From NCBI RefSeq assembly GCF_003018115.1, contig NZ_CP027457.1: a stretch of DNA of 64,000 nucleotides. One strand, written 5' to 3'. Position numbers and translations under genes: made by a program. Source of the stretch: Escherichia coli. GTDB lineage: Bacteria; Pseudomonadota; Gammaproteobacteria; Enterobacterales; Enterobacteriaceae. Shown piece by piece: positions 20,237-53,899 of this stretch. The notes beneath the pieces are model-generated. The model searched no databases. It had not been told where the DNA came from and saw nothing but the letters and a program-made list of their open reading frames with translations. Positions within the stretch are counted from its first letter, which is position 1. The number at the start of each line of letters is the position of its first letter.

Positions 20237-20311
20237 AGCTCTGAGGCATTTTCACTCTGGCAATGCGCTTGACATCCTCCACGCCCTAAAGGACGTGGAT
20301 TCCTGCTACGT

Positions 20312-21520
20312 TCAGGCTGTCGCCTGAATCATTTCGGTGGGTTCCTGCTTCAACGGGCGGCCTGACTGCACCATCCCTCCACAGGCAAGAACGGCGTGCC
20401 CCGCCGCTAAAATGTTACGAGCGCCGTTTACATCGGCGTTCGCTGTATATCCACATACCGGGCATCTGAATTGACTTTGTGACAGGCGATTTTCTTTCGC
20501 TGTATGACCACAGCACGCGCAACGCTGGCTTGTGTACGCTGGCGGAACAGCAAGCACCTGACCGCCACGCCAGAGCTGCTTGTACTCAAGCTGGCGGCGC
20601 ATTTCATACCAGCCCTGATCCAGTATCGAACGGTTTAAACCTGATTTTGCCCGGACATTGCGCCCCGGCAGGCTGACCGTACCCGATGCTGACTTTGACA
20701 TGTTGCTGACCTTCAAATCCTCAATGACTATCATTGCGTGGTTTTTGCTGACGGTCGTTGTGACTTTGTGAAGGTAGTCCCTGCGGATATTTGCGATACA
20801 GGAATGCAGTCGCTGTATTTTGCGTTTCTGCTTCTGCCAGTTGTTGCTGAATTTGACCTTGCGGCTTAACTGTCGCTGAAGTCTCGCCAGCTTCTTCTGG
20901 TTTTTCTGAAAACTGTTTACAGGCTCAAAGGCTGTGCCATCTGACAGCGTGGCGAGTTTAGCCACGCCAGCATCCAGCCCGACCATTGATGCTGAAGGGT
21001 GAACCGGAGTTGATACTTCACTTTCTGTCTGAATACTGATGTACCACTTACCGCAGGACTGGCTGACCGTGACATTTTTCACAACACCCGTGACCTGACG
21101 GCTATTCCGGTAGCGCATCCAGCCCAGTTTCGGCAGAAAAATACGGCTGTTTTCCTGATCGAGCTTAACGCCCTGCGGGTAGCGGAATGCATCATTCTGT
21201 CCCCGCTTTTTGAATCGGGGAAAAGCAGCCCGCTTCTGGAAGAAGTTTTTGTAAGCCCGCTCAAGGTCTTTCAGTGACTGTTGCAATGGCTGTGAGGGCG
21301 AATCTTTAAGCCATTGCGTTTCAGTGGCGTTTTTCCACTCAACCAGCCAGGAAGCCATTTTCCCGTAAGGGATGTATTTATTACCGGCCTCATGATTCTC
21401 ATTCTGACGTGCCAGAGCACGATTGAAAACGAAACGACATGCGCCTGCGAAGCGCCTCATTTCACGCTCCTGTTGACCACCGGGTCTTAACTGGAATTTA
21501 AATGCCTGTAGTCGTTTCAT
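20312..21520 (-). CDS. tnpB: IS605-family TnpB/OrfB, RuvC-like with C-terminal CxxC...CxxC zinc finger (402 aa from [10 protein letters not shown])
   Basis: [14 protein letters not shown]-terminus, C-terminal CACCGH...CPVCGY zinc finger typical of TnpB. Confidence 0.85.
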
Positions 21521-21542
21521 GGGCCAAATCATACTTTGGCCT

Positions 21543-21958
21543 ATGAAAAAAGAAACCGATATCCGACGCGGAAGGCATTGTGTTTTCCTGATGCATGTTC
21601 ACCTGGTCTTCGTTACTAAATACCGACGTCAGATTTTTGACTATGACGCGACAGAAAAACTACGCACTTACTTTTCAAATGTATGTGCTGATTTTGAAGC
21701 TGAACTGGTTGAAATGGATGGCGAACCAGATCACGTCCATTTGTTAATTAACTATCCTCCCAAACTGGCGATATCCAGTCTGGTAAACAGCCTCAAAGGC
21801 GTATCGGGTAGGTTACTGCGACGAGATCGACCAGATATTGCAGCCAGGTATTACTACAAAGCGTTTTGTGGAGTCCTGGCTATTTTGCCAGTAGCTGCGG
21901 TGGTGCACCAATATCCATCATCCGCCAATACATTGAACAACAGCAAACACCTGGTTAG
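21543..21958 (+). pseudogene. tnpA: IS200-type Y1 (HuH) transposase TnpA, apparently frameshifted before the catalytic-Tyr motif
   Basis: HVHLLI HuH motif in frame 0; conserved C-terminal SSCGGAPISIIRQYIEQQQTPG is encoded in the +2 frame after ...YYYK (shift near 21858-21863); the frame-0 ORF instead runs on to 22046. Confidence 0.6.
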
Positions 21959-22015
21959 GTGGAAAACCGCACCTTATATCCCCGCCCTGAATGAACGGGG
22001 TTTTACGGCGCACCG

Positions 22016-22093
22016 GATAAAGCAATCATCGTTCTTGGGGCGTTAATTGCGCTGCTGGAACTGATCCGCTTTCTGCTTCAGCTTCTGAACTGA
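22016..22093 (+). pseudogene. dinQ: DinQ-like type I toxin peptide ORF (DKAIIVLGALIALLELIRFLLQLLN), lacking an in-frame start codon
   Basis: Translation matches the remembered 27 aa DinQ peptide from residue 3; in-frame upstream codons back to the stop at 21992-21994 contain no ATG/GTG/TTG. Confidence 0.45.
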
Positions 22094-22109
22094 TAGCGGA
22101 AACGTAATT

Positions 22110-42845: not shown

Positions 42846-43969
42846 TGCGCCATTTACGCAATATTTTTAATCTGGGTATCAAAGAGTTGCGCAGTCTACT
42901 CGGTGATAAAGCGATGCTGACATTGATTGTCTTCTCGTTTACGGTGTCGGTGTATTCGTCAGCGACCGTTACGCCAGGATCGTTGAACCTCGCGCCGATC
43001 GCCATTGCCGATATGGATCAATCGCAGTTATCGAACCGGATCGTTAACAGCTTCTATCGCCCGTGGTTTTTGCCACCGGAGATGATCACCGCCGATGAGA
43101 TGGATGCCGGACTGGACGCCGGGCGTTATACCTTTGCGATAAATATTCCGCCTAATTTTCAGCGTGATGTCCTCGCCGGACGCCAGCCGGATATTCAGGT
43201 GAACGTCGATGCCACGCGCATGAGCCAGGCATTTACCGGCAATGGGTATATCCAGAATATTATCAACGGTGAAGTGAACAGCTTTGTCGCGCGCTACCGT
43301 GATAACAGCGAACCGTTGGTATCGCTGGAAACCCGGATGCGCTTTAACCCGAACCTTGATCCCGCGTGGTTTGGCGGGGTGATGGCGATCATCAACAACA
43401 TTACTATGCTGGCGATTGTATTGACCGGATCGGCGCTGATCCGCGAGCGTGAACACGGCACGGTGGAACACTTACTGGTGATGCCGATAACGCCGTTTGA
43501 GATCATGATGGCGAAGGTCTGGTCGATGGGGCTAGTGGTGCTGGTGGTATCGGGATTATCGCTGGTGCTGATGGTGAAAGGCGTGCTGGGCGTACCGATT
43601 GAAGGCTCGATCCCGCTGTTTATGCTGGGCGTGGCGCTCAGTCTGTTTGCCACCACGTCAATCGGCATTTTTATGGGGACGATAGCGCGTTCAATGCCGC
43701 AACTGGGGCTGCTGGTGATTCTGGTGCTGCTGCCGCTGCAAATGCTTTCCGGTGGATCCACGCCGCGCGAAAGTATGCCGCAGATGGTGCAGGACATTAT
43801 GCTGACCATGCCGACGACACACTTTGTTAGCCTCGCGCAGGCCATTCTCTACCGGGGTGCCGGATTCGAAATCGTCTGGCCGCAGTTCCTGACGCTGATG
43901 GCAATTGGCGGCGCGTTTTTCACCATTGCGCTGCTGCGATTCAGGAAGACGATTGGGACAATGGCGTAA
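42845..43969 (+). CDS. yhhJ: ABC-2 type permease YhhJ (374 aa; start at the second ATG of atgatg, overlapping the rbbA stop)
   Basis: Matches YhhJ from [15 protein letters not shown]. Confidence 0.85.
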   Translation: MRHLRNIFNLGIKELRSLLGDKAMLTLIVFSFTVSVYSSATVTPGSLNLAPIAIADMDQSQLSNRIVNSFYRPWFLPPEMITADEMDAGLDAGRYTFAINIPPNFQRDVLAGRQPDIQVNVDATRMSQAFTGNGYIQNIINGEVNSFVARYRDNSEPLVSLETRMRFNPNLDPAWFGGVMAIINNITMLAIVLTGSALIREREHGTVEHLLVMPITPFEIMMAKVWSMGLVVLVVSGLSLVLMVKGVLGVPIEGSIPLFMLGVALSLFATTSIGIFMGTIARSMPQLGLLVILVLLPLQMLSGGSTPRESMPQMVQDIMLTMPTTHFVSLAQAILYRGAGFEIVWPQFLTLMAIGGAFFTIALLRFRKTIGTMA

Positions 43970-43980
43970 GGAAGGGAAAC

Positions 43981-44033
43981 TTGACTTCATACTGTGATGT
44001 CATACTATTGATGTCATAAAGTGAAGTCATAAG
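43981..44033. promoter_or_regulatory. Operator-like cluster of four (t)ga(t/a)gtcata repeats upstream of the hicA-like gene
   Basis: ttgacttcata / tgatgtcata / tgatgtcata / tgaagtcata read from sequence, with acttca...tgaagt inverted pair. Confidence 0.3.
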
Positions 44034-44041
44034 GACATGCC

Positions 44042-44317
44042 ATGAGAACCAAGGTACAGGCTTTACGGAAGAAACAAAAAAATACATTGGATCAAATATT
44101 TAAAACTCCTGTTCCTCAAGGGATCAAGTGGTCTGATATAGAGTCACTGGTTAAAGCATTAGGCGGAGAAATTAAGGAAGGAAGAGGTTCGCGTTGTAAG
44201 TTCATACTAAATATGAGCGTTGCGTGTTTCCATCGGCCTCATCCGTCGCCAGATACCGATAAAGGCGCTGTAGAAAGCGTGCGTGACTGGTTACTAAGTA
44301 TAGGGGTAAAACCATGA
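44042..44317 (+). CDS. HicA-like mRNA interferase toxin (91 aa)
   Basis: YcfA/HicA-like motifs GSRCKF...HRPHP...KGAV; 4 bp overlap with the downstream antitoxin-like ORF. Confidence 0.55.
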   Translation: MRTKVQALRKKQKNTLDQIFKTPVPQGIKWSDIESLVKALGGEIKEGRGSRCKFILNMSVACFHRPHPSPDTDKGAVESVRDWLLSIGVKP

Positions 44318-44673
44318 TCAAACTGAAGACGCCAAACTCTATGGAGATTGCCGGGCAACCTGCTGTTATCACTTACGTGCCAGAACTGAATGCATTTCGT
44401 GGCAAATTCCTGGGCTTGTCAGGTTATTGTGATTTTGTCTCTGACAGCATTCAGGGGCTGCAAAAAGAAGGGGAACTTTCCCTGCGAGAGTATCTTGAGG
44501 ATTGTAAAGCTGCGGGTATTGAGCCGTATGCGCGTACAGAAAAGATTAAGACCTTTACGTTACGCTATCCAGAATCGCTGAGTGAACGCCTTAATAATGC
44601 GGCTGCGCAGCAACAAGTCTCTGTTAATACCTATATTATTGAAACACTGAATGAGCGTTTGAATCATTTATAA
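44314..44673 (+). CDS. HicB-like antitoxin with C-terminal ribbon-helix-helix DNA-binding region (119 aa)
   Basis: N-terminal HicB-like fold region, C-terminal RYPESLSERLNNAAAQQQVSVNTYIIETLNERL resembling RHH. Confidence 0.55.
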   Translation: MIKLKTPNSMEIAGQPAVITYVPELNAFRGKFLGLSGYCDFVSDSIQGLQKEGELSLREYLEDCKAAGIEPYARTEKIKTFTLRYPESLSERLNNAAAQQQVSVNTYIIETLNERLNHL

Positions 44674-44727
44674 ATTTTAGCGGCGTACATTACGCAGAAT
44701 ATCTGCCTTTACAGGATCTATCTATGC

Positions 44728-44760
44728 AACTGAACTTAATTTTATAAATTAAGTTCAGTT
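44728..44760. terminator. Near-perfect 33 bp palindrome (aactgaacttaatt...aattaagttcagtt) between the convergent hicB-like gene and nikR
   Basis: Read from sequence; bidirectional terminator or island-boundary structure. Confidence 0.4.
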
Positions 44761-44792
44761 AATATCTTTTCTTTCCTCGTTTTAGAAATAAC

Positions 44793-47596
<2,804 letters not shown>

Positions 47597-47600
<4 letters not shown>

Positions 47601-48541
47601 GCGTGCGCTCCTTCATGACGACGAATGCGCGGGTCCAGCGCGGCGTTGAGCAAATCGACAATCAAATTACAGACCACAAAAACCACCACCATCATCAGCG
47701 TAAAGCACTGAATCACCGGATAGTCACGGTTAAAAATCGCCGACACCGCATAGCGCCCGACGCCCGGCCAGGCAAAGATGTTTTCGATAATCATCGTCCC
47801 GCCAATCAGTTCGCCGATGTGCATCCCCACGGCGGTGATCATCGGCAGCGAGGCATTGCGCAGAATATGGCGGCGTTCGGTCTGTTTGTCGTTCAGGCCG
47901 CGCAGACGCGCCCAGGTGACGTGACGCTGACCGGCGACGTCCAGCATACTGGCGCGCAGTAAACGCGCGTTAATCGCCAGCGACATAAAGGCAATGGAAA
48001 CCGCAGGCAAAATGATGTGCTGCCAGCCGCCGTAGCCCATCGCGGGTAGCCATTGCAGATACACCGAAAACGCCATCACCAGTAAAAACGCCAGCCAGAA
48101 GTTAGGCATCGACACGCCAAGAAATGCGATGAAACGTACGGCGAAATCCGGCAGACGGTCGCGATGGCGCGCCGCCCAGATACCGAGCGGTACGGAAGTG
48201 AGCAGAATTAATACCAGCGCCGCACCTGCAAGTTCCAGCGTGGCGGGCAGGAAGTTCAGCATATCGTCCAGTACCGGGCGTTGGCTGGCGAATGAGATAC
48301 CAAAGTCAAGATGCAGCGCCTTCCACAACCAGGTGCCGTACTGGACGTACAGCGGCTGATCCAGTCCCAGCATGGTGCGGGTAGAGGCCAGCATCTCCGG
48401 CGTCGGCGGCAGGTTAGACAGACGCAAATAATCGAGCGCCGGGTCGCCGGTACCGAGGCGCAGCATCAGAAAAATGATCACCGAGGCGGCGAGCACCATC
48501 GGGATCAGCAGCAGAAAGCGGCGTAATACGTAACGCAACAT
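47597..48541 (-). CDS. nikB: Nickel ABC transporter permease NikB (314 aa)
   Basis: Opp/Dpp-type permease; NikB sequence. Confidence 0.9.
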
Positions 48542-50115
48542 TAAGGTTTCACCGGTTTAATCTGTTCGAACGGAATTTCGGTGGCGATCGGCGCGTAGGG
48601 GATGTTACCCAGCTCCGGTTTTGATACCACCATCATTGAGATGTAACTGATAGGCAGATAAACCGCCTCGTCATGCAGACGGGTCAGAATGTCGCGATAC
48701 AGCGCCTGACGTTGCGTTTCGTCATGGGTCGCCAGCACTTCGCCGATCTCTTTATCAATCAGCGGTTTGTCGGCTAATCCTTGCTGTGCCTGGAAGTCAG
48801 CGTGTGACGGTACGCGCATTGAACTGAGGAAGGCGTGTGGATCGTATGGCGCGCCCCAGGTGCGGTGGAAAATCATGCCAAAACGACCGTCGCGCTGACG
48901 AGCATAGATACTGCTCTCTTCTTCGCCAATCAGCGAGACATCTGCGCCAATCTGGCGCAGATCAGCCTGAATGATTTCCGCCATCGATTTGCTTAACGCA
49001 TCGGTGCCGATGAACGACAGTTCAATGCGCAGCGGCTGACCATTTTTCTCGCGGATGTCTTTGCCCGCAGGCAGCGTCCAACCGGCTTTTTCCAGCAACT
49101 CTTTTGCTTTCTGCGGATCGTACTGGCGCGGTTTCAGGCCGAGGTTGGCGTAGGGCACAGAAGGGGCAAACAGGGTGTCGGCGACCTGCTGGGTGCCATA
49201 CAACGCGTTATCAATCAGCGATTTTTTGTTTACCGCGTAATTAAGAGCTTCACGTACTGCCAGCTCGTTGGTGGGGGCTTTGGCGGTATTGAGCGCCAGC
49301 ATCACGGTTTCGATCGGCTGTGACAGTTGGGTGTGGTAAGCCGGATTCTGGCTAAAGCGGGCGAAGGTATCGAGCGGTAATAACCCTTCGTTTCCGTACA
49401 GCAGGTCGATATCGCCAGTTTCAAACGCCACCGCGCGGGTAGTCGGGTCCGGGATGACGTTAAAAGTGATCTTCTTAATCGCCGGCTTTTCGCCCCAGTA
49501 GTTTTCGTTACGGACGAAGACATCGTACTGATTCAGTTTCGATTCCTGCAAAATCCACGGTCCGGTGCCAATCGGCGCTTTAATTCCGTTCATGGTTTCA
49601 TGGTTTTTAAACTGCGAGGGGGCGATAAAACGGAAAGGGCGCGGCAGGGCCAGTTCTTGCAGGAAAGGATAGTAGGCGCTTTTCAGGGTGATTTGCAGCT
49701 CTGTTTTACTGAGTGCTTTAACATCAACAATCTGGTTTGCCAGCTCCAGCCAGGCGTGACGTTGACGGTTATCGAGCACTGCGCGGAAGTTTTCTGCCGC
49801 CGCCTCGGCATCGAACGGTTCACCGTTGGAGAATTTCACGTCATCACGCAGGGTGAAGGTCCAGGTTTTACCATCTTCTGAATGAGTCCAGCTTTTTGCC
49901 AGCCACGGGATCACCGAACCGTCTGCCTGATATTTCACCAATGGTTCATAAACCATGCTCTGGGCGAACATCTGGTTAGGCGTGTAAAGGTGCGGGTTTA
50001 GTGGCCCGACATTCACCGGCCAGGCGGTGGTGATTTCATCTGGTGCAGCGGCATGGACGATAAAAGACGCACAAGCCAGCAGCGCAAATAGAGTGCGGCG
50101 GAGTGTGGAGAGCAT
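48541..50115 (-). CDS. nikA: Periplasmic nickel-binding protein NikA (524 aa)
   Basis: Signal peptide plus family 5 solute-binding protein; NikA sequence. Confidence 0.9.
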
Positions 50116-50152
50116 GGTAACCCCAATGGATTAAAATAGATGGCGGAAATAA

Positions 50153-50180
50153 GTATGACGATTTTAAGTATTCGTCATAC
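50153..50180. promoter_or_regulatory. NikR operator GTATGA-N16-TCATAC upstream of nikA
   Basis: Exact match to the NikR dyad with 16 bp spacer, about 40 bp upstream of the nikA start. Confidence 0.6.
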
Positions 50181-50225
50181 TGATTACCTGTTCTGGATCA
50201 ATAGATGGGCAGTCGGGTGGGCGGA

Positions 50226-50813
50226 TCAGTTAACTGAATCGATCCATTGCACACTGTCGGCGGTGAGCGTAAAGGGGGTGGGGGTGCAGATCGCAAGGCT
50301 TAAATTTTCAAGCTGACAATGGCTGACTGACAGCGAGGAGTGATAGGTGCTGTCTACGCTGACGATTTGCCAGGCGCTGCCGCCACGCTGTTTAACGATG
50401 GCTTCTTTGCGCGTCCAGATGCGCCAGAACATTTCCAGTTGCTGATCAGGATGCACGGCGTCCATCTCAGCGTGTTCCCCGAGGCTGAATACGGCGTTCG
50501 CCAGCCAGCGCCAGTTGGCGCGCGGGCGAATCACTTCGATATCGCAGCCGACTTCGCCTTCATCACTCAACAGCAGGGCGATATCGTCACCGCTATGGCT
50601 TAAGTTGAACCATAGCGGCATTTCCGGCGCAAATGCAGGTTTGCCTTGTTCGCCATAGATGATCTCCGGTAGCGGGGAAAGCGTGTGCGAAAGCAATGCA
50701 CGCCCCGCCAGCCAGCGTTCGCGTCGTGGACCTTGCGGTGCTTGCTCGCGTAAACCCGGTGGCAGTGGAGCTGCGCTTAAGGTCGAAACTTTCCCCAGAA
50801 CTATCCGATACAT
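50226..50813 (-). CDS. acpT: 4'-phosphopantetheinyl transferase AcpT (195 aa)
   Basis: Matches AcpT; position next to nikA. Confidence 0.8.
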   Translation of the reverse strand: MYRIVLGKVSTLSAAPLPPGLREQAPQGPRRERWLAGRALLSHTLSPLPEIIYGEQGKPAFAPEMPLWFNLSHSGDDIALLLSDEGEVGCDIEVIRPRANWRWLANAVFSLGEHAEMDAVHPDQQLEMFWRIWTRKEAIVKQRGGSAWQIVSVDSTYHSSLSVSHCQLENLSLAICTPTPFTLTADSVQWIDSVN

Positions 50814-50867
50814 ATCAGGGCCAACGTTTAATGGAAAATGAAAGTGCGTATCGTATCACTTGTCGCC

Positions 50868-51917
50868 TCATCCCGGTAACCGACTTTTCGGTCTGCCCGG
50901 CCCCAGTAAAATCGCCAGTTTGCTGCCACCTTTCGTCGTTTCCATCCAGATTTTACACACGCTGGTTAATGGCACCGAAAGTAGCATCCCTACCGGGCCG
51001 AGCAGCCATCCCCAGATTAACAATGAAAGAAATACCACCATGGTGGACATCCCCAGGCGATGGCCCATCATCCGTGGTTCTAAAATATTGCCGATGACCA
51101 TATGGACCACTAAAAACAATGCGCCGACCAGAATACATTCGTAAACACCATTAAACAGCAGCACCTGAATCATTGGCGGTACGGCGGAAATTACCGCGCC
51201 GATATTGGGCACGTAGTTGAGCAAAAACGCCAGTACTGCCCACATCAGCGCAAACTGCACCCCCATCAGCTCCAGCCCCAGCCAGACGATGACACCTGTC
51301 CATAAACTGAGTAGCGTCTTCAATGCAAGATAGTGCGAAACGCCTTTAAGTGCGCGGTGTAATCCTGCGATGTGAATCTGTGGGTTATTCAGCGCAAAAC
51401 GCATTTTGTAAGGGACGTGGCGCACTTCAAACAGCATAAAAACTACGGTCATCACCAGCAAAAGCACGCTCGCCATTGCCCCGGAAAGCCCGGTCATTAG
51501 CGCTGTGGTGAAGGTAACCACTTTTTCCGAGTCCATCCGCTGCAGCATTCGCTCCGGCGACATATGCAAATTAAGAAAAGGCAACATCTCCTGCAATTTA
51601 AAAAGTTTGCGCGTCAACTCCTTATTAAACTTCGGCAGCATAGAGATAAATTCGTTAAACGATGCCGCCAGTACGCCGACCAGCGCAGTTAGTGCGATCA
51701 GCATCACCACCACCACAATCGTAATGGCAATGGGGCGTTGTACTCCCCGACGAATAAACCAGGTGACGAGCGGGTTGAGGACGATGGCAAAAAACAGCGC
51801 CAGTAACAGCTGCACAATGATATCTGCCGCTGCGTGAATGCCCGCGAGGATCACTACCAGCGAGGCCAGCTTGAGCAGAATGTGCATGCCCGTTTTATCG
51901 GGTTGAGGGGTTTCCAT
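50868..51917 (-). CDS. yhhT: AI-2E family transporter YhhT (349 aa; start at METPQPDKTG)
   Basis: Polytopic membrane protein matching YhhT; track ORF has a 27 aa extension. Confidence 0.8.
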   Translation of the reverse strand: METPQPDKTGMHILLKLASLVVILAGIHAAADIIVQLLLALFFAIVLNPLVTWFIRRGVQRPIAITIVVVVMLIALTALVGVLAASFNEFISMLPKFNKELTRKLFKLQEMLPFLNLHMSPERMLQRMDSEKVVTFTTALMTGLSGAMASVLLLVMTVVFMLFEVRHVPYKMRFALNNPQIHIAGLHRALKGVSHYLALKTLLSLWTGVIVWLGLELMGVQFALMWAVLAFLLNYVPNIGAVISAVPPMIQVLLFNGVYECILVGALFLVVHMVIGNILEPRMMGHRLGMSTMVVFLSLLIWGWLLGPVGMLLSVPLTSVCKIWMETTKGGSKLAILLGPGRPKSRLPG

Positions 51918-52048
51918 TGGGGCTTCCTTGTGACTTTTTGTATTAAGTGTAGCGGGAGTCACGCCAGCAATATTCTGATTCTTACTGCTGATTTTCACGT
52001 CAGCACGTGGTAAAAATGAAACACTGTTGTAAAAATGTGGTGATCCTC

Positions 52049-53266
52049 ATGCCCGAACCCGTAGCCGAACCCGCGCTAAACGGATTGCGCCTGAATTTGC
52101 GCATTGTCTCTATAGTCATGTTTAACTTCGCCAGCTACCTCACCATCGGGTTGCCGCTCGCTGTATTACCGGGCTATGTCCATGATGTGATGGGCTTTAG
52201 CGCCTTCTGGGCAGGATTGGTTATCAGCCTGCAATATTTCGCCACCTTGCTGAGCCGCCCTCATGCCGGACGTTACGCCGATTTGCTGGGACCCAAAAAG
52301 ATTGTCGTCTTCGGTTTATGCGGCTGCTTTTTGAGCGGTCTGGGGTATCTGACGGCAGGATTAACCGCCAGTCTGCCTGTCATCAGCCTGTTATTACTTT
52401 GCCTGGGGCGCGTCATCCTTGGGATTGGGCAAAGTTTTGCCGGAACGGGATCGACCCTGTGGGGTGTTGGCGTGGTTGGCTCGCTGCATATCGGGCGGGT
52501 GATTTCGTGGAACGGCATTGTCACTTACGGGGCGATGGCGATGGGTGCGCCGTTAGGCGTCGTGTTTTATCACTGGGGCGGCTTGCAGGCGTTAGCGTTA
52601 ATCATTATGGGCGTGGCGCTGGTGGCCATTTTGTTGGCGATCCCGCGTCCGACGGTAAAAGCCAGTAAAGGCAAACCGCTGCCGTTTCGCGCGGTGCTTG
52701 GGCGCGTCTGGCTGTACGGTATGGCGCTGGCACTGGCTTCCGCCGGATTTGGCGTCATCGCCACCTTTATCACGCTGTTTTATGACGCTAAAGGTTGGGA
52801 CGGTGCGGCTTTCGCGCTGACGCTGTTTAGCTGTGCGTTTGTCGGTACGCGTTTGTTATTCCCTAACGGCATTAACCGTATCGGCGGCTTAAACGTAGCG
52901 ATGATTTGCTTTAGCGTTGAGATAATCGGCCTGCTACTGGTTGGCGTGGCGACTATGCCGTGGATGGCGAAAATCGGCGTCTTACTGGCGGGGGCCGGGT
53001 TTTCGCTGGTGTTCCCGGCATTGGGTGTAGTGGCGGTAAAAGCGGTTCCGCAGCAAAATCAGGGGGCGGCGCTGGCAACTTACACCGTATTTATGGATTT
53101 ATCGCTTGGCGTGACTGGACCACTGGCTGGGCTGGTGATGAGCTGGGCGGGCGTACCGGTGATTTATCTGGCGGCGGCGGGACTGGTCGCAATCGCGTTA
53201 TTACTGACGTGGCGATTAAAAAAACGGCCTCCGGAACACGTCCCTGAGGCCGCCTCATCATCTTAA
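52049..53266 (+). CDS. yhhS: MFS transporter YhhS (405 aa; start at MPEPVAEPAL)
   Basis: 12-TM MFS-like protein matching YhhS. Confidence 0.8.
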   Translation: MPEPVAEPALNGLRLNLRIVSIVMFNFASYLTIGLPLAVLPGYVHDVMGFSAFWAGLVISLQYFATLLSRPHAGRYADLLGPKKIVVFGLCGCFLSGLGYLTAGLTASLPVISLLLLCLGRVILGIGQSFAGTGSTLWGVGVVGSLHIGRVISWNGIVTYGAMAMGAPLGVVFYHWGGLQALALIIMGVALVAILLAIPRPTVKASKGKPLPFRAVLGRVWLYGMALALASAGFGVIATFITLFYDAKGWDGAAFALTLFSCAFVGTRLLFPNGINRIGGLNVAMICFSVEIIGLLLVGVATMPWMAKIGVLLAGAGFSLVFPALGVVAVKAVPQQNQGAALATYTVFMDLSLGVTGPLAGLVMSWAGVPVIYLAAAGLVAIALLLTWRLKKRPPEHVPEAASSS

Positions 53267-53269
53267 AAC

Positions 53270-53827
53270 TTACTGAATAACCAGCGTATTAATGATGTTT
53301 TCTGCGGTGGTCTGCGCTTTTTGCTGATCGTCAGCGGGCAGAGTAATTTGCATGGTCAGCAGTTGATTACCCACGTTACCCAGAATAACGGAAGAGTACG
53401 CCGTCTGGCCTTTCGCGGAGATAATACTGTCTAACTGCTGCATTTTGTGACCTTTCAGCTCAATGGCTTTATTGGTTACCACTTGCAGCTGCGGATCGCG
53501 GCTACGTTGCTGATCTTCCAGACGCTTCGCCAGCACCGCCAGATCTTCTTTCGGATCATCGCCCATGATGACGATGACTGCTTTCTGCCCGGTGGCGTCG
53601 GACCAGACATGCATGTTATTGGCCTGCGTTCCCAGCTTACCGCTCTGGTCGGTCATATCCGCTGGCAGCGAGAAACTTAACTTGCCATCAAGCAGGTTGA
53701 CGGGATTCCCGGTAGCGTTACTTTCCGCGACCGAACCCTGCGCCGTAGCGTTAGTGTCTTTATCATCACAGGCCGCAAGCCCCATAACCAGCAGGCCAAT
53801 TCCGACATATTTAACCAGATTGCGCAT
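53270..53827 (-). CDS. dcrB: Periplasmic lipoprotein DcrB (185 aa; start at [10 protein letters not shown])
   Basis: Lipobox LAACDD, DcrB sequence. Confidence 0.8.
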
Positions 53828-53899
53828 TGACTTCTTCCTTTCGATAAACGGCCATAACGGCTCATTCATCCATCTTATCACAACTCTGATAACGAACCT

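Follow-up and report, generated by a model that had tools for sequence, protein, structure and literature searches.

The segment 43970-44760 of a 64,000-nt stretch of Escherichia coli DNA (contig NZ_CP027457.1, assembly GCF_003018115.1; the whole stretch is hereafter called the window) lies between yhhJ and nikR and carries a gene pair that we read, with good confidence, as a bicistronic type II HicAB toxin-antitoxin operon, with the toxin first, a ribbon-helix-helix (RHH) HicB antitoxin of Gerdes class 4 and one sigma-70-type promoter lying under four TGAnnTCA boxes. The pair is already named in RefSeq as a HicA-family toxin (WP_001259385.1) and a HicB-family antitoxin (WP_000593555.1). The initial annotation, made from the sequence alone, had described an open reading frame (ORF) of 91 amino acids (aa), HicA-like, overlapping by 4 bp a HicB-like ORF of 119 aa; the coordinates, reported in Table 1, were confirmed, the hicA stop and the hicB start sharing the bases ATGA on the same strand. 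The toxin gene precedes the HicB gene, the two genes remain together at all the related loci examined, and they are presumably co-transcribed. The GC content is 0.40-0.46 within the module and 0.54-0.58 in the flanks. Two ORFs on the minus strand (43941-44087 and 44202-44372) were set aside, as nothing supported them. A scan of positions 43800-44900 against Rfam (E <= 1) gave no match, hence no known RNA element or type I or III partner is present there.

Both proteins were compared with profile libraries, as the initial annotation had proposed, and both belong to the expected families. The 91-aa protein matches the Pfam family HicA_toxin (PF07927) with 37.7 bits, against a gathering threshold of 27, its residues 30-80 falling on profile positions 1-52 of 58; it also matches PHROG 8887, labelled 'toxin', at 7.4e-27. 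The AlphaFold2 model, built on 25 homologues (predicted local distance difference test, pLDDT, 94.9), contains a predicted core of alpha(30-39)-beta(43-46)-beta(51-56)-beta(59-64)-alpha(74-86), corresponding to the alpha1-beta1-beta2-beta3-alpha2 fold of HicA, similar to a double-stranded RNA-binding domain. Two extra helices (residues 2-6 and 10-19) precede it, in an N-terminal extension of residues 1-19.

The 119-aa protein matches the Pfam family HicB (PF05534) with 56.8 bits, against a cut-off of 21, over residues 60-112, while residues 1-59 match no Pfam model. Weak Pfam matches to Arc, CopG and FitA are found at its C-terminus, and the family profile matches Arc and AmrZ in the PDB. In the AlphaFold2 model (pLDDT 85.8), the N-terminal domain (residues 9-67; strands 9-12, 15-22, 27-32 and 40-43, helix 46-67) appears to be a partial RNase-H-like domain of the HicB type, and the C-terminal domain (about 77-118) is predicted to be an RHH, with two helices following a putative ribbon segment. 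A Foldseek search returned HicB structures first (6g26_B, 6u0i_B and 4p78_A at a probability of 0.99, 4p7d_B at 0.92), the RHH proteins Arc, KacA and AtaR ranking after them. The RHH-like C-terminus noticed in the initial annotation is thus borne out, and its description of the locus as a compact accessory module of a known type stands, the pair being of HicAB type by Pfam, predicted folds and gene order.

Upstream of hicA, a consensus scan located a candidate sigma-70-type promoter with 9 matches out of 12, on which four short repeats are superimposed (Table 1). Four repeats within about 50 bp had been pointed out at first; they are present, three of them fitting exactly the pattern then given, while the first differs at two positions. 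Comparison with related loci refined the repeated core to the 8-bp TGAnnTCA, usually TGACTTCA or its reverse complement TGAAGTCA. The four 10-mers are spaced by 13, 14 and 13 bp, and boxes 1-2 and boxes 3-4 make up a 21-nt imperfect dyad centred on the -10 hexamer. Exact matches to TGANGTCATA occur three times in the window, all within this array, where 0.39 would be expected, and 4 of the 22 sites of the form TGANNTCA fall inside 48 bp at the array, a clustering well beyond chance.

The boxes keep fixed positions over the promoter, relative to the hicA ATG, in 7 bacterial lineages and 20 prophage loci (positions for several lineages are given in Table 1). The box 1 octamer is found at the equivalent position in all compared lineages, and counterparts of boxes 3 and 4 were recorded in all of them, at -32 to -34 and at -19 to -21. 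A conserved box encloses the TTGACT hexamer at the loci of E. coli, Citrobacter, Leminorella, Serratia and the prophages, and in all the loci compared the -35 hexamer falls within a box. The equivalent of box 2 is degenerate, reading TGCTGTCA in Citrobacter and CGCTATCA in the lineage carrying the homologue P0006. In the 20 distinct prophage loci, taken from IMG/VR, the last 100 nt upstream contain on average 3.65 boxes, at -72/-59/-32/-19, and the remainder of the same loci 0.024 boxes per 100 nt; the sequence between boxes is variable. Conservation in related loci supports the operator-like character first attributed to the repeats, and the four boxes may be regarded as a conserved operator-like array to which HicB would bind. 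Relatives of about 50% identity (84 aa; IMG/VR) have two direct repeats of other sequence (TAGTATCA, GGTACYA (GGTACTG/GGTACCA), AGTACCA), with a period of 13-14 bp, located 3' of a TTGACA-like hexamer and overlapping the -10 region; other repeats with the same geometry in diverged relatives fit an operator co-evolving with its RHH repressor.

The junction was compared across genomes, as had been suggested. The pair lies next to yhhJ in 2070 of 5426 complete E. coli genomes annotated in RefSeq (about 38%). In 1490 of these carriers hicB directly abuts nikR, and other sequence follows hicB in the remainder. Both genomes examined for such non-abutting junctions, O157:H7 FRIK944 (locus L003, 14824-20433) and SMS-3-5 (L004), contain between hicB and nikR an island of seven genes, coding for a class II aldolase, an HPr-like protein, an FGGY kinase, the IIC, IIB and IIA components of a galactitol-type phosphotransferase system and a GntR regulator; the match to the window breaks off 11 nt past the hicB stop. 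In K-12 the order is nikR-rhsB-yhhH-yrhC'-yhhI-yhhJ (NC_000913.3), so the initial annotation was right that rhsB, yhhH and yhhI separate nikR from yhhJ in that strain, and the sequence shared with the window runs exactly up to the stop codons of yhhJ and nikR. In Citrobacter the genes are arranged as in the window, yhhJ-hicAB-nikR, and another enterobacterial lineage has mgtE...hicAB-nikR. Because of this synteny, hicAB was probably the older occupant of the site and the K-12 rhsB element the replacement. The initial annotation had therefore placed the pair correctly at the position of the K-12 rhsB, while its implication that the cassette is a newcomer runs opposite to the order seen in Citrobacter and the second lineage. 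In Citrobacter (L007), hicAB is bracketed by two direct GC-rich copies of about 47 bp, ccggcctgcggtcgcgaactgcgccaggccggagaagcgcagcgcac, one after the yhhJ stop (about 3878-3924) and the other after the hicB stop (about 4641-4687), which may be a REP-like element or the trace of an insertion or recombination event.

The 33-bp palindrome described initially before nikR consists of two 15-nt arms (44728-44742 and 44746-44760), 100% complementary, separated by a 3-nt loop; as RNA it folds with -15.3 kcal/mol (z = -5.75). On the hicAB strand it is followed by AATATCTTTTCTTTCCTCGTTTT, and on the nikR strand by no T-run. The palindrome, 44728-44760, is most simply, and probably, the terminator of hicAB. 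It occurs in the 1490 genomes with hicB directly next to nikR, and is absent from the Citrobacter and O157:H7 junctions, which carry other sequence. The possibility of a repeated mobile element was rejected, the palindrome being single-copy in the window and specific to the E. coli hicB-nikR junction. Strain A30 (L006, 8288-9054) has an IS1 element about 60 bp away from nikR. Its sequence matches the window from 44747 onwards, a position within the right arm of the palindrome, and the whole region between yhiN and there is lost, apparently through an IS1-mediated deletion in a strain that once carried hicAB.

Relatives of the pair are also found in mobile contexts. The closest relatives outside Escherichia are prophage cargo: close homologues (68-79% identity) reside inside P2-like prophages of Serratia proteamaculans and Xenorhabdus, where they adjoin gpA, Ogr/Delta, portal and terminase genes; the Serratia pair (L009) is located between the gpA replication gene with a Dam-like methylase, on one side, and ogr/portal, on the other. 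This variable region of P2-like phages often carries exclusion or defence genes. Close relatives occur on 52 viral contigs, and close homologues on 22 IMG/VR contigs, of which 15 are 32-40 kb long; tblastn matches to more distant relatives include Burkholderia phage ST79, 49 Ralstonia phage records and many plasmids. Both proteins are filed by PHROGs in the phage 'moron' toxin/antitoxin class. These contexts, the low GC content of the module relative to its flanks, and the anti-phage roles that Gerdes 2024 (PMC10865869) proposes for HicA domains would agree with a cassette acting as defence or exclusion cargo, or as a stabiliser of its carrier element; the E. coli copy would then be a long-resident relic of such cargo. 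Such a role, compatible with a toxin-antitoxin mechanism, is considered possible but rather doubtful: PADLOC-DB 2.0 contains no defence model matching either protein at E <= 0.01, the pair stands between core genes, with phage genes absent nearby, in E. coli, Citrobacter and a third lineage, and the allele seems to be toxin-null in about 38% of the E. coli carriers.

In the HicAB operon favoured here, the toxin departs from its family at one residue. Every experimentally studied HicA requires one Gly and one His, located at the beta1-beta2 turn and the start of beta2, the essential residues being Gly22/His24 in B. pseudomallei and N. gonorrhoeae, His28 in Y. pestis HicA3, His36 in S. pneumoniae and His23 in K-12 (PMC12297915, PMC11594946, PMC3969222, PMC4848639, PMC6327479). 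Gly49-Ser50-Arg51 stands where canonical HicAs carry Gly-Ser-His: the glycine is present, and the position of the catalytic His is occupied by Arg51. Residues G49, S50, R51, H64, P66, H67, P68, D73 and G75 do not vary among the 25 homologues, the most distant of which has 49% identity. In a set of about 240 retrieved relatives, GSR is the first-matching tripeptide in 182 and FHRPHP is found in 193; most of the non-GSR counts are artefacts, the pattern catching an earlier GSG. When the family hidden Markov model is aligned to PDB 9svk, R51 falls on the His of RGSH, H64 on a Thr and H67 on a Tyr; one member of the clade, P0318, has GSH at the GSR position. In a profile search of 1.84 billion representatives, 1019 clusters (50% identity) passed a limit of E <= 1e-10 and 2448 a limit of E <= 1e-3. 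The clade occurs in Enterobacterales, in other bacterial phyla, on plasmids and in P2-like prophages. Older names of the HicA- and HicB-family members P0052, P0055, P0058, P0077, P0102 and P0162 ('hexulose-6-phosphate synthase', 'uracil DNA glycosylase', 'DNA repair protein') are wrong. Alignments with K-12 HicA by hhalign/hmmsearch, which placed alpha2 of the toxin on alpha1 of the K-12 protein, were discarded as spurious.

H64, at the end of beta3, and H67, just after it within FHRPHP, are both invariant His residues specific to the clade. In the model, beta2 and beta3 form a two-residue hairpin, and by the strand register of the DSSP string R51 and H64 would be cross-strand neighbours. Given an Arg in place of the His, two invariant His residues and this predicted pairing, the active site has probably been rebuilt rather than lost. 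The wording 'HicA-like' of the initial annotation is therefore safe for fold and family; the Arg at the canonical catalytic position, which passed unremarked in the GSRCKF it quoted, means that it is not yet so for mechanism. Tentatively, and with less than even confidence, we would see here a large unstudied HicA clade, marked by R51, H64/H67 and the N-terminal extension, that might use another chemistry, substrate or partner, for instance in a ribosome- or tRNA-dependent manner.

Disrupted hicA alleles bear on the same question. The SMS-3-5 gene is frameshifted by a 1-nt deletion in an A-run. In the M15-type allele (L015), exactly one 14-bp unit, 43995-44008, comprising box 2 and the -10 TACTAT, is missing, codon 2 of hicA (44045-44047) is TAA and hicB is identical to that of the window; the HicA that RefSeq annotates there has 76 aa and starts at a CTG codon. 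This allele is found in about 770-809 complete genomes, versus about 1270 with the four-box form. Fourteen synonymous and 5 conservative codon differences from the window, counted by hand from the alignment, all fall in the 5' half of hicA (about 44045-44195), the 3' half and the whole of hicB being identical, which suggests a recombination breakpoint inside the gene. The mostly synonymous or conservative nature of these differences also speaks for selection on the toxin. Truncated HicA clusters are also frequent in the protein database (P0094, for example, is on 588 contigs). In the alleles examined the disruption always concerns hicA and never hicB, WP_000593555.1 being retained, a pattern expected of a real toxin. 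This decay of hicA first, with hicB intact, and the strict conservation of the motifs argue for an active toxin.

The Arg in place of an essential His, the abolition of toxicity by H24A-type changes in all tested HicAs (PMC12297915, PMC11594946), the frequency of disrupted hicA alleles in E. coli and the conserved 27-residue N-terminal extension could alternatively denote a clade that is catalytically dead, or not made of RNases, in which the 91-aa protein is an RNA- or HicB-binding co-regulator and the pair a small autoregulated module. We hold this to be unlikely, since GSR, FHRPHP and D73/G75 are strictly invariant over about 1000 clusters (50% identity), indicating a maintained active surface, disruption confined to hicA would make sense only for a HicA that does harm when HicB is missing, and the GSH of P0318 shows that the two forms of the site are equivalent and interchangeable. 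Moreover, Arg-based catalysis without His occurs in other toxin RNases, such as RelE.

Very improbable is the view that the upstream repeats are a by-product of tandem duplication or sites for another factor, boxes similar to TGACGTCA being generic palindromes: boxes 2 and 3 are exact 10-nt copies in a 14-bp tandem unit, of which a common allele lacks one copy, and a chance TGACGTCA is found inside nikR at 44849, but the boxes accompany the gene pair through unrelated contexts (yhhJ/mgtE-nikR, murJ-argS, beside the his operon, P2-like prophages), their distance to the ATG stays constant while the flanking sequence changes, and the more diverged HicB relatives have different repeats of the same period.

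The HicAB operon would then work as follows. A HicB dimer would bind the boxes through its C-terminal RHH and shut off its own operon, hicA and hicB would be translationally coupled by the ATGA overlap, and transcription would probably stop at the 44728-44760 hairpin. The N-terminal partial-RNase-H-like domain of HicB would bind HicA, neutralising the toxin, whereas free HicA would act on RNA and arrest growth. A ribosome-independent RNase activity of HicA is the least secure element of this scheme, given the altered catalytic position.

Several observations weigh against this interpretation. The Arg occupies the position of the His required by every characterised HicA. A search of the PDB with the single toxin sequence gave no match even at E <= 10, and the family profile reaches the HicA chain 9svk only at E = 0.07. 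No NCBIfam model matches toxin or antitoxin, and there is no NCBIfam equivalog. A literature search, which left most subscription-journal papers outside its reach, found no experiment on the locus or the clade. Box 2 overlaps the -10 region and may partly be a by-product of the 14-bp duplication. Finally, termination is uncertain, because the hairpin is AT-rich and the T-run is not directly adjacent to it.

For E. coli genomics the finding is routine, the pair being already named and the junction one more polymorphic spot. For specialists the unexpected part may be the clade-wide Arg for the catalytic His, with new invariant His residues nearby; as the clade does without a residue held essential in the HicA literature, E. 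coli offers a convenient native model for its mechanism. The four-box operator-like array makes autoregulation testable, and the natural three-box, toxin-null alleles provide ready comparisons.

Table 1. Features of the hicAB locus (positions in the window) and box positions relative to the hicA ATG in related loci
Feature	Position	Strand	Remarks
yhhJ	ends 43969		upstream neighbour of the hicAB pair
sigma-70-type promoter-like site	43981-44008	+	-35 TTGACT, 43981-43986; 16-nt spacer; -10 TACTAT, 44003-44008
box 1	43982-43989	+	TGACTTCA (10-mer TGACTTCATA); overlaps the -35 hexamer
box 2	43995-44002	+	TGATGTCA (10-mer TGATGTCATA); in the promoter spacer, abuts the -10
box 3	44009-44016	+	TGATGTCA (10-mer TGATGTCATA); just 3' of the -10, over the expected transcription start
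box 4	44022-44029	+	TGAAGTCA (10-mer TGAAGTCATA); reverse complement of box 1
Shine-Dalgarno-like AAGGA	44031-44035	+	6 nt before the hicA ATG; read from the sequence
hicA-like toxin gene	44042-44317	+	91 aa; WP_001259385.1; contains ...GRGSRCKF...FHRPHPSP...
hicB-like antitoxin gene	44314-44673	+	119 aa; WP_000593555.1
hairpin and T-rich stretch	44728-44783	+	between the convergent hicB and nikR; probable intrinsic hicAB terminator
nikR	44793-45194		convergent with hicB
boxes, E. coli (window)	-60, -47, -33, -20		relative to ATG
boxes, Citrobacter and P0006-carrying lineage	-60/-61, near -47, -32/-34, -19/-21		relative to ATG; box near -47 degenerate
boxes, Serratia	-72, -59, -32, -19		relative to ATG
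boxes, Leminorella	-70, -57, -31		relative to ATG
boxes, Xenorhabdus	-75, -35, -22		relative to ATG

From 44769 to 64000 the window differs from E. coli strain F9792 by 3 bases only. Elsewhere in the window, an IS200/IS605 element (about 20300-22100), with a frameshifted tnpA and an intact gene for the RNA-guided nuclease TnpB/InsQ, adjoins the type I toxin gene dinQ, and the chu/shu haem-uptake cluster occupies about 5200-14200; these coordinates are approximate, having been transferred from the annotation of the near-identical F9792.

The HicAB system of K-12 (hicA b4532/hicB b1438; 6HPB) resides at another locus, at 1.509 Mb, and differs in several respects. Its HicA has 58 aa with His23, versus 91 aa with Arg51 here, and its 138-aa HicB has a helix-turn-helix DNA-binding domain (Gerdes class 3), versus the predicted RHH of the present antitoxin. 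The K-12 genes are 45 bp apart, whereas those of the pair studied here overlap. Two promoters are used by the K-12 operon, as reported in PMC11869752, citing Turnbull and Gerdes 2017, in contrast with the one promoter-like site seen at this locus. The O157:H7 papers mentioning hicA or hicB cite the K-12 system, and may have measured either locus.

The class 4 hicAB modules, as presented in Gerdes 2024 (PMC10865869), are likewise bicistronic, with a C-terminal RHH on HicB and closely linked or overlapping genes; in the text searched, that survey speaks neither of an N-terminal extension nor of any catalytic residue or histidine. Both models find their closest structural counterparts in the B. 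pseudomallei HicAB (6G26, 4C26) and the Y. pestis HicA3-HicB3 (4P78, 4P7D) systems, with which the present pair shares the order of hicA followed by hicB and the alpha-beta-beta-beta-alpha fold of HicA. The antitoxins of those two species autoregulate at operators within their promoters, and the operator-like boxes would make the present system similar in this respect too. Identity in the structural alignments is, however, only about 10-24%, and relative to the B. pseudomallei and Y. pestis HicAs the toxin described here, 91 aa long, has a conserved two-helix N-terminal extension, Gly-Ser-Arg, and the invariant His64 and His67.

The C-terminus of HicB aligns with Arc and AmrZ, and is thus comparable to the repressors of the Arc/MetJ type. 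Met boxes are short pseudo-palindromic 8-bp boxes arranged in tandem, and in this they resemble the TGAnnTCA array. Unlike the sites of Arc/MetJ-type repressors, the boxes upstream of hicA do not abut but follow one another at 13-14 bp, and the repressor domain shares one polypeptide with an antitoxin domain.

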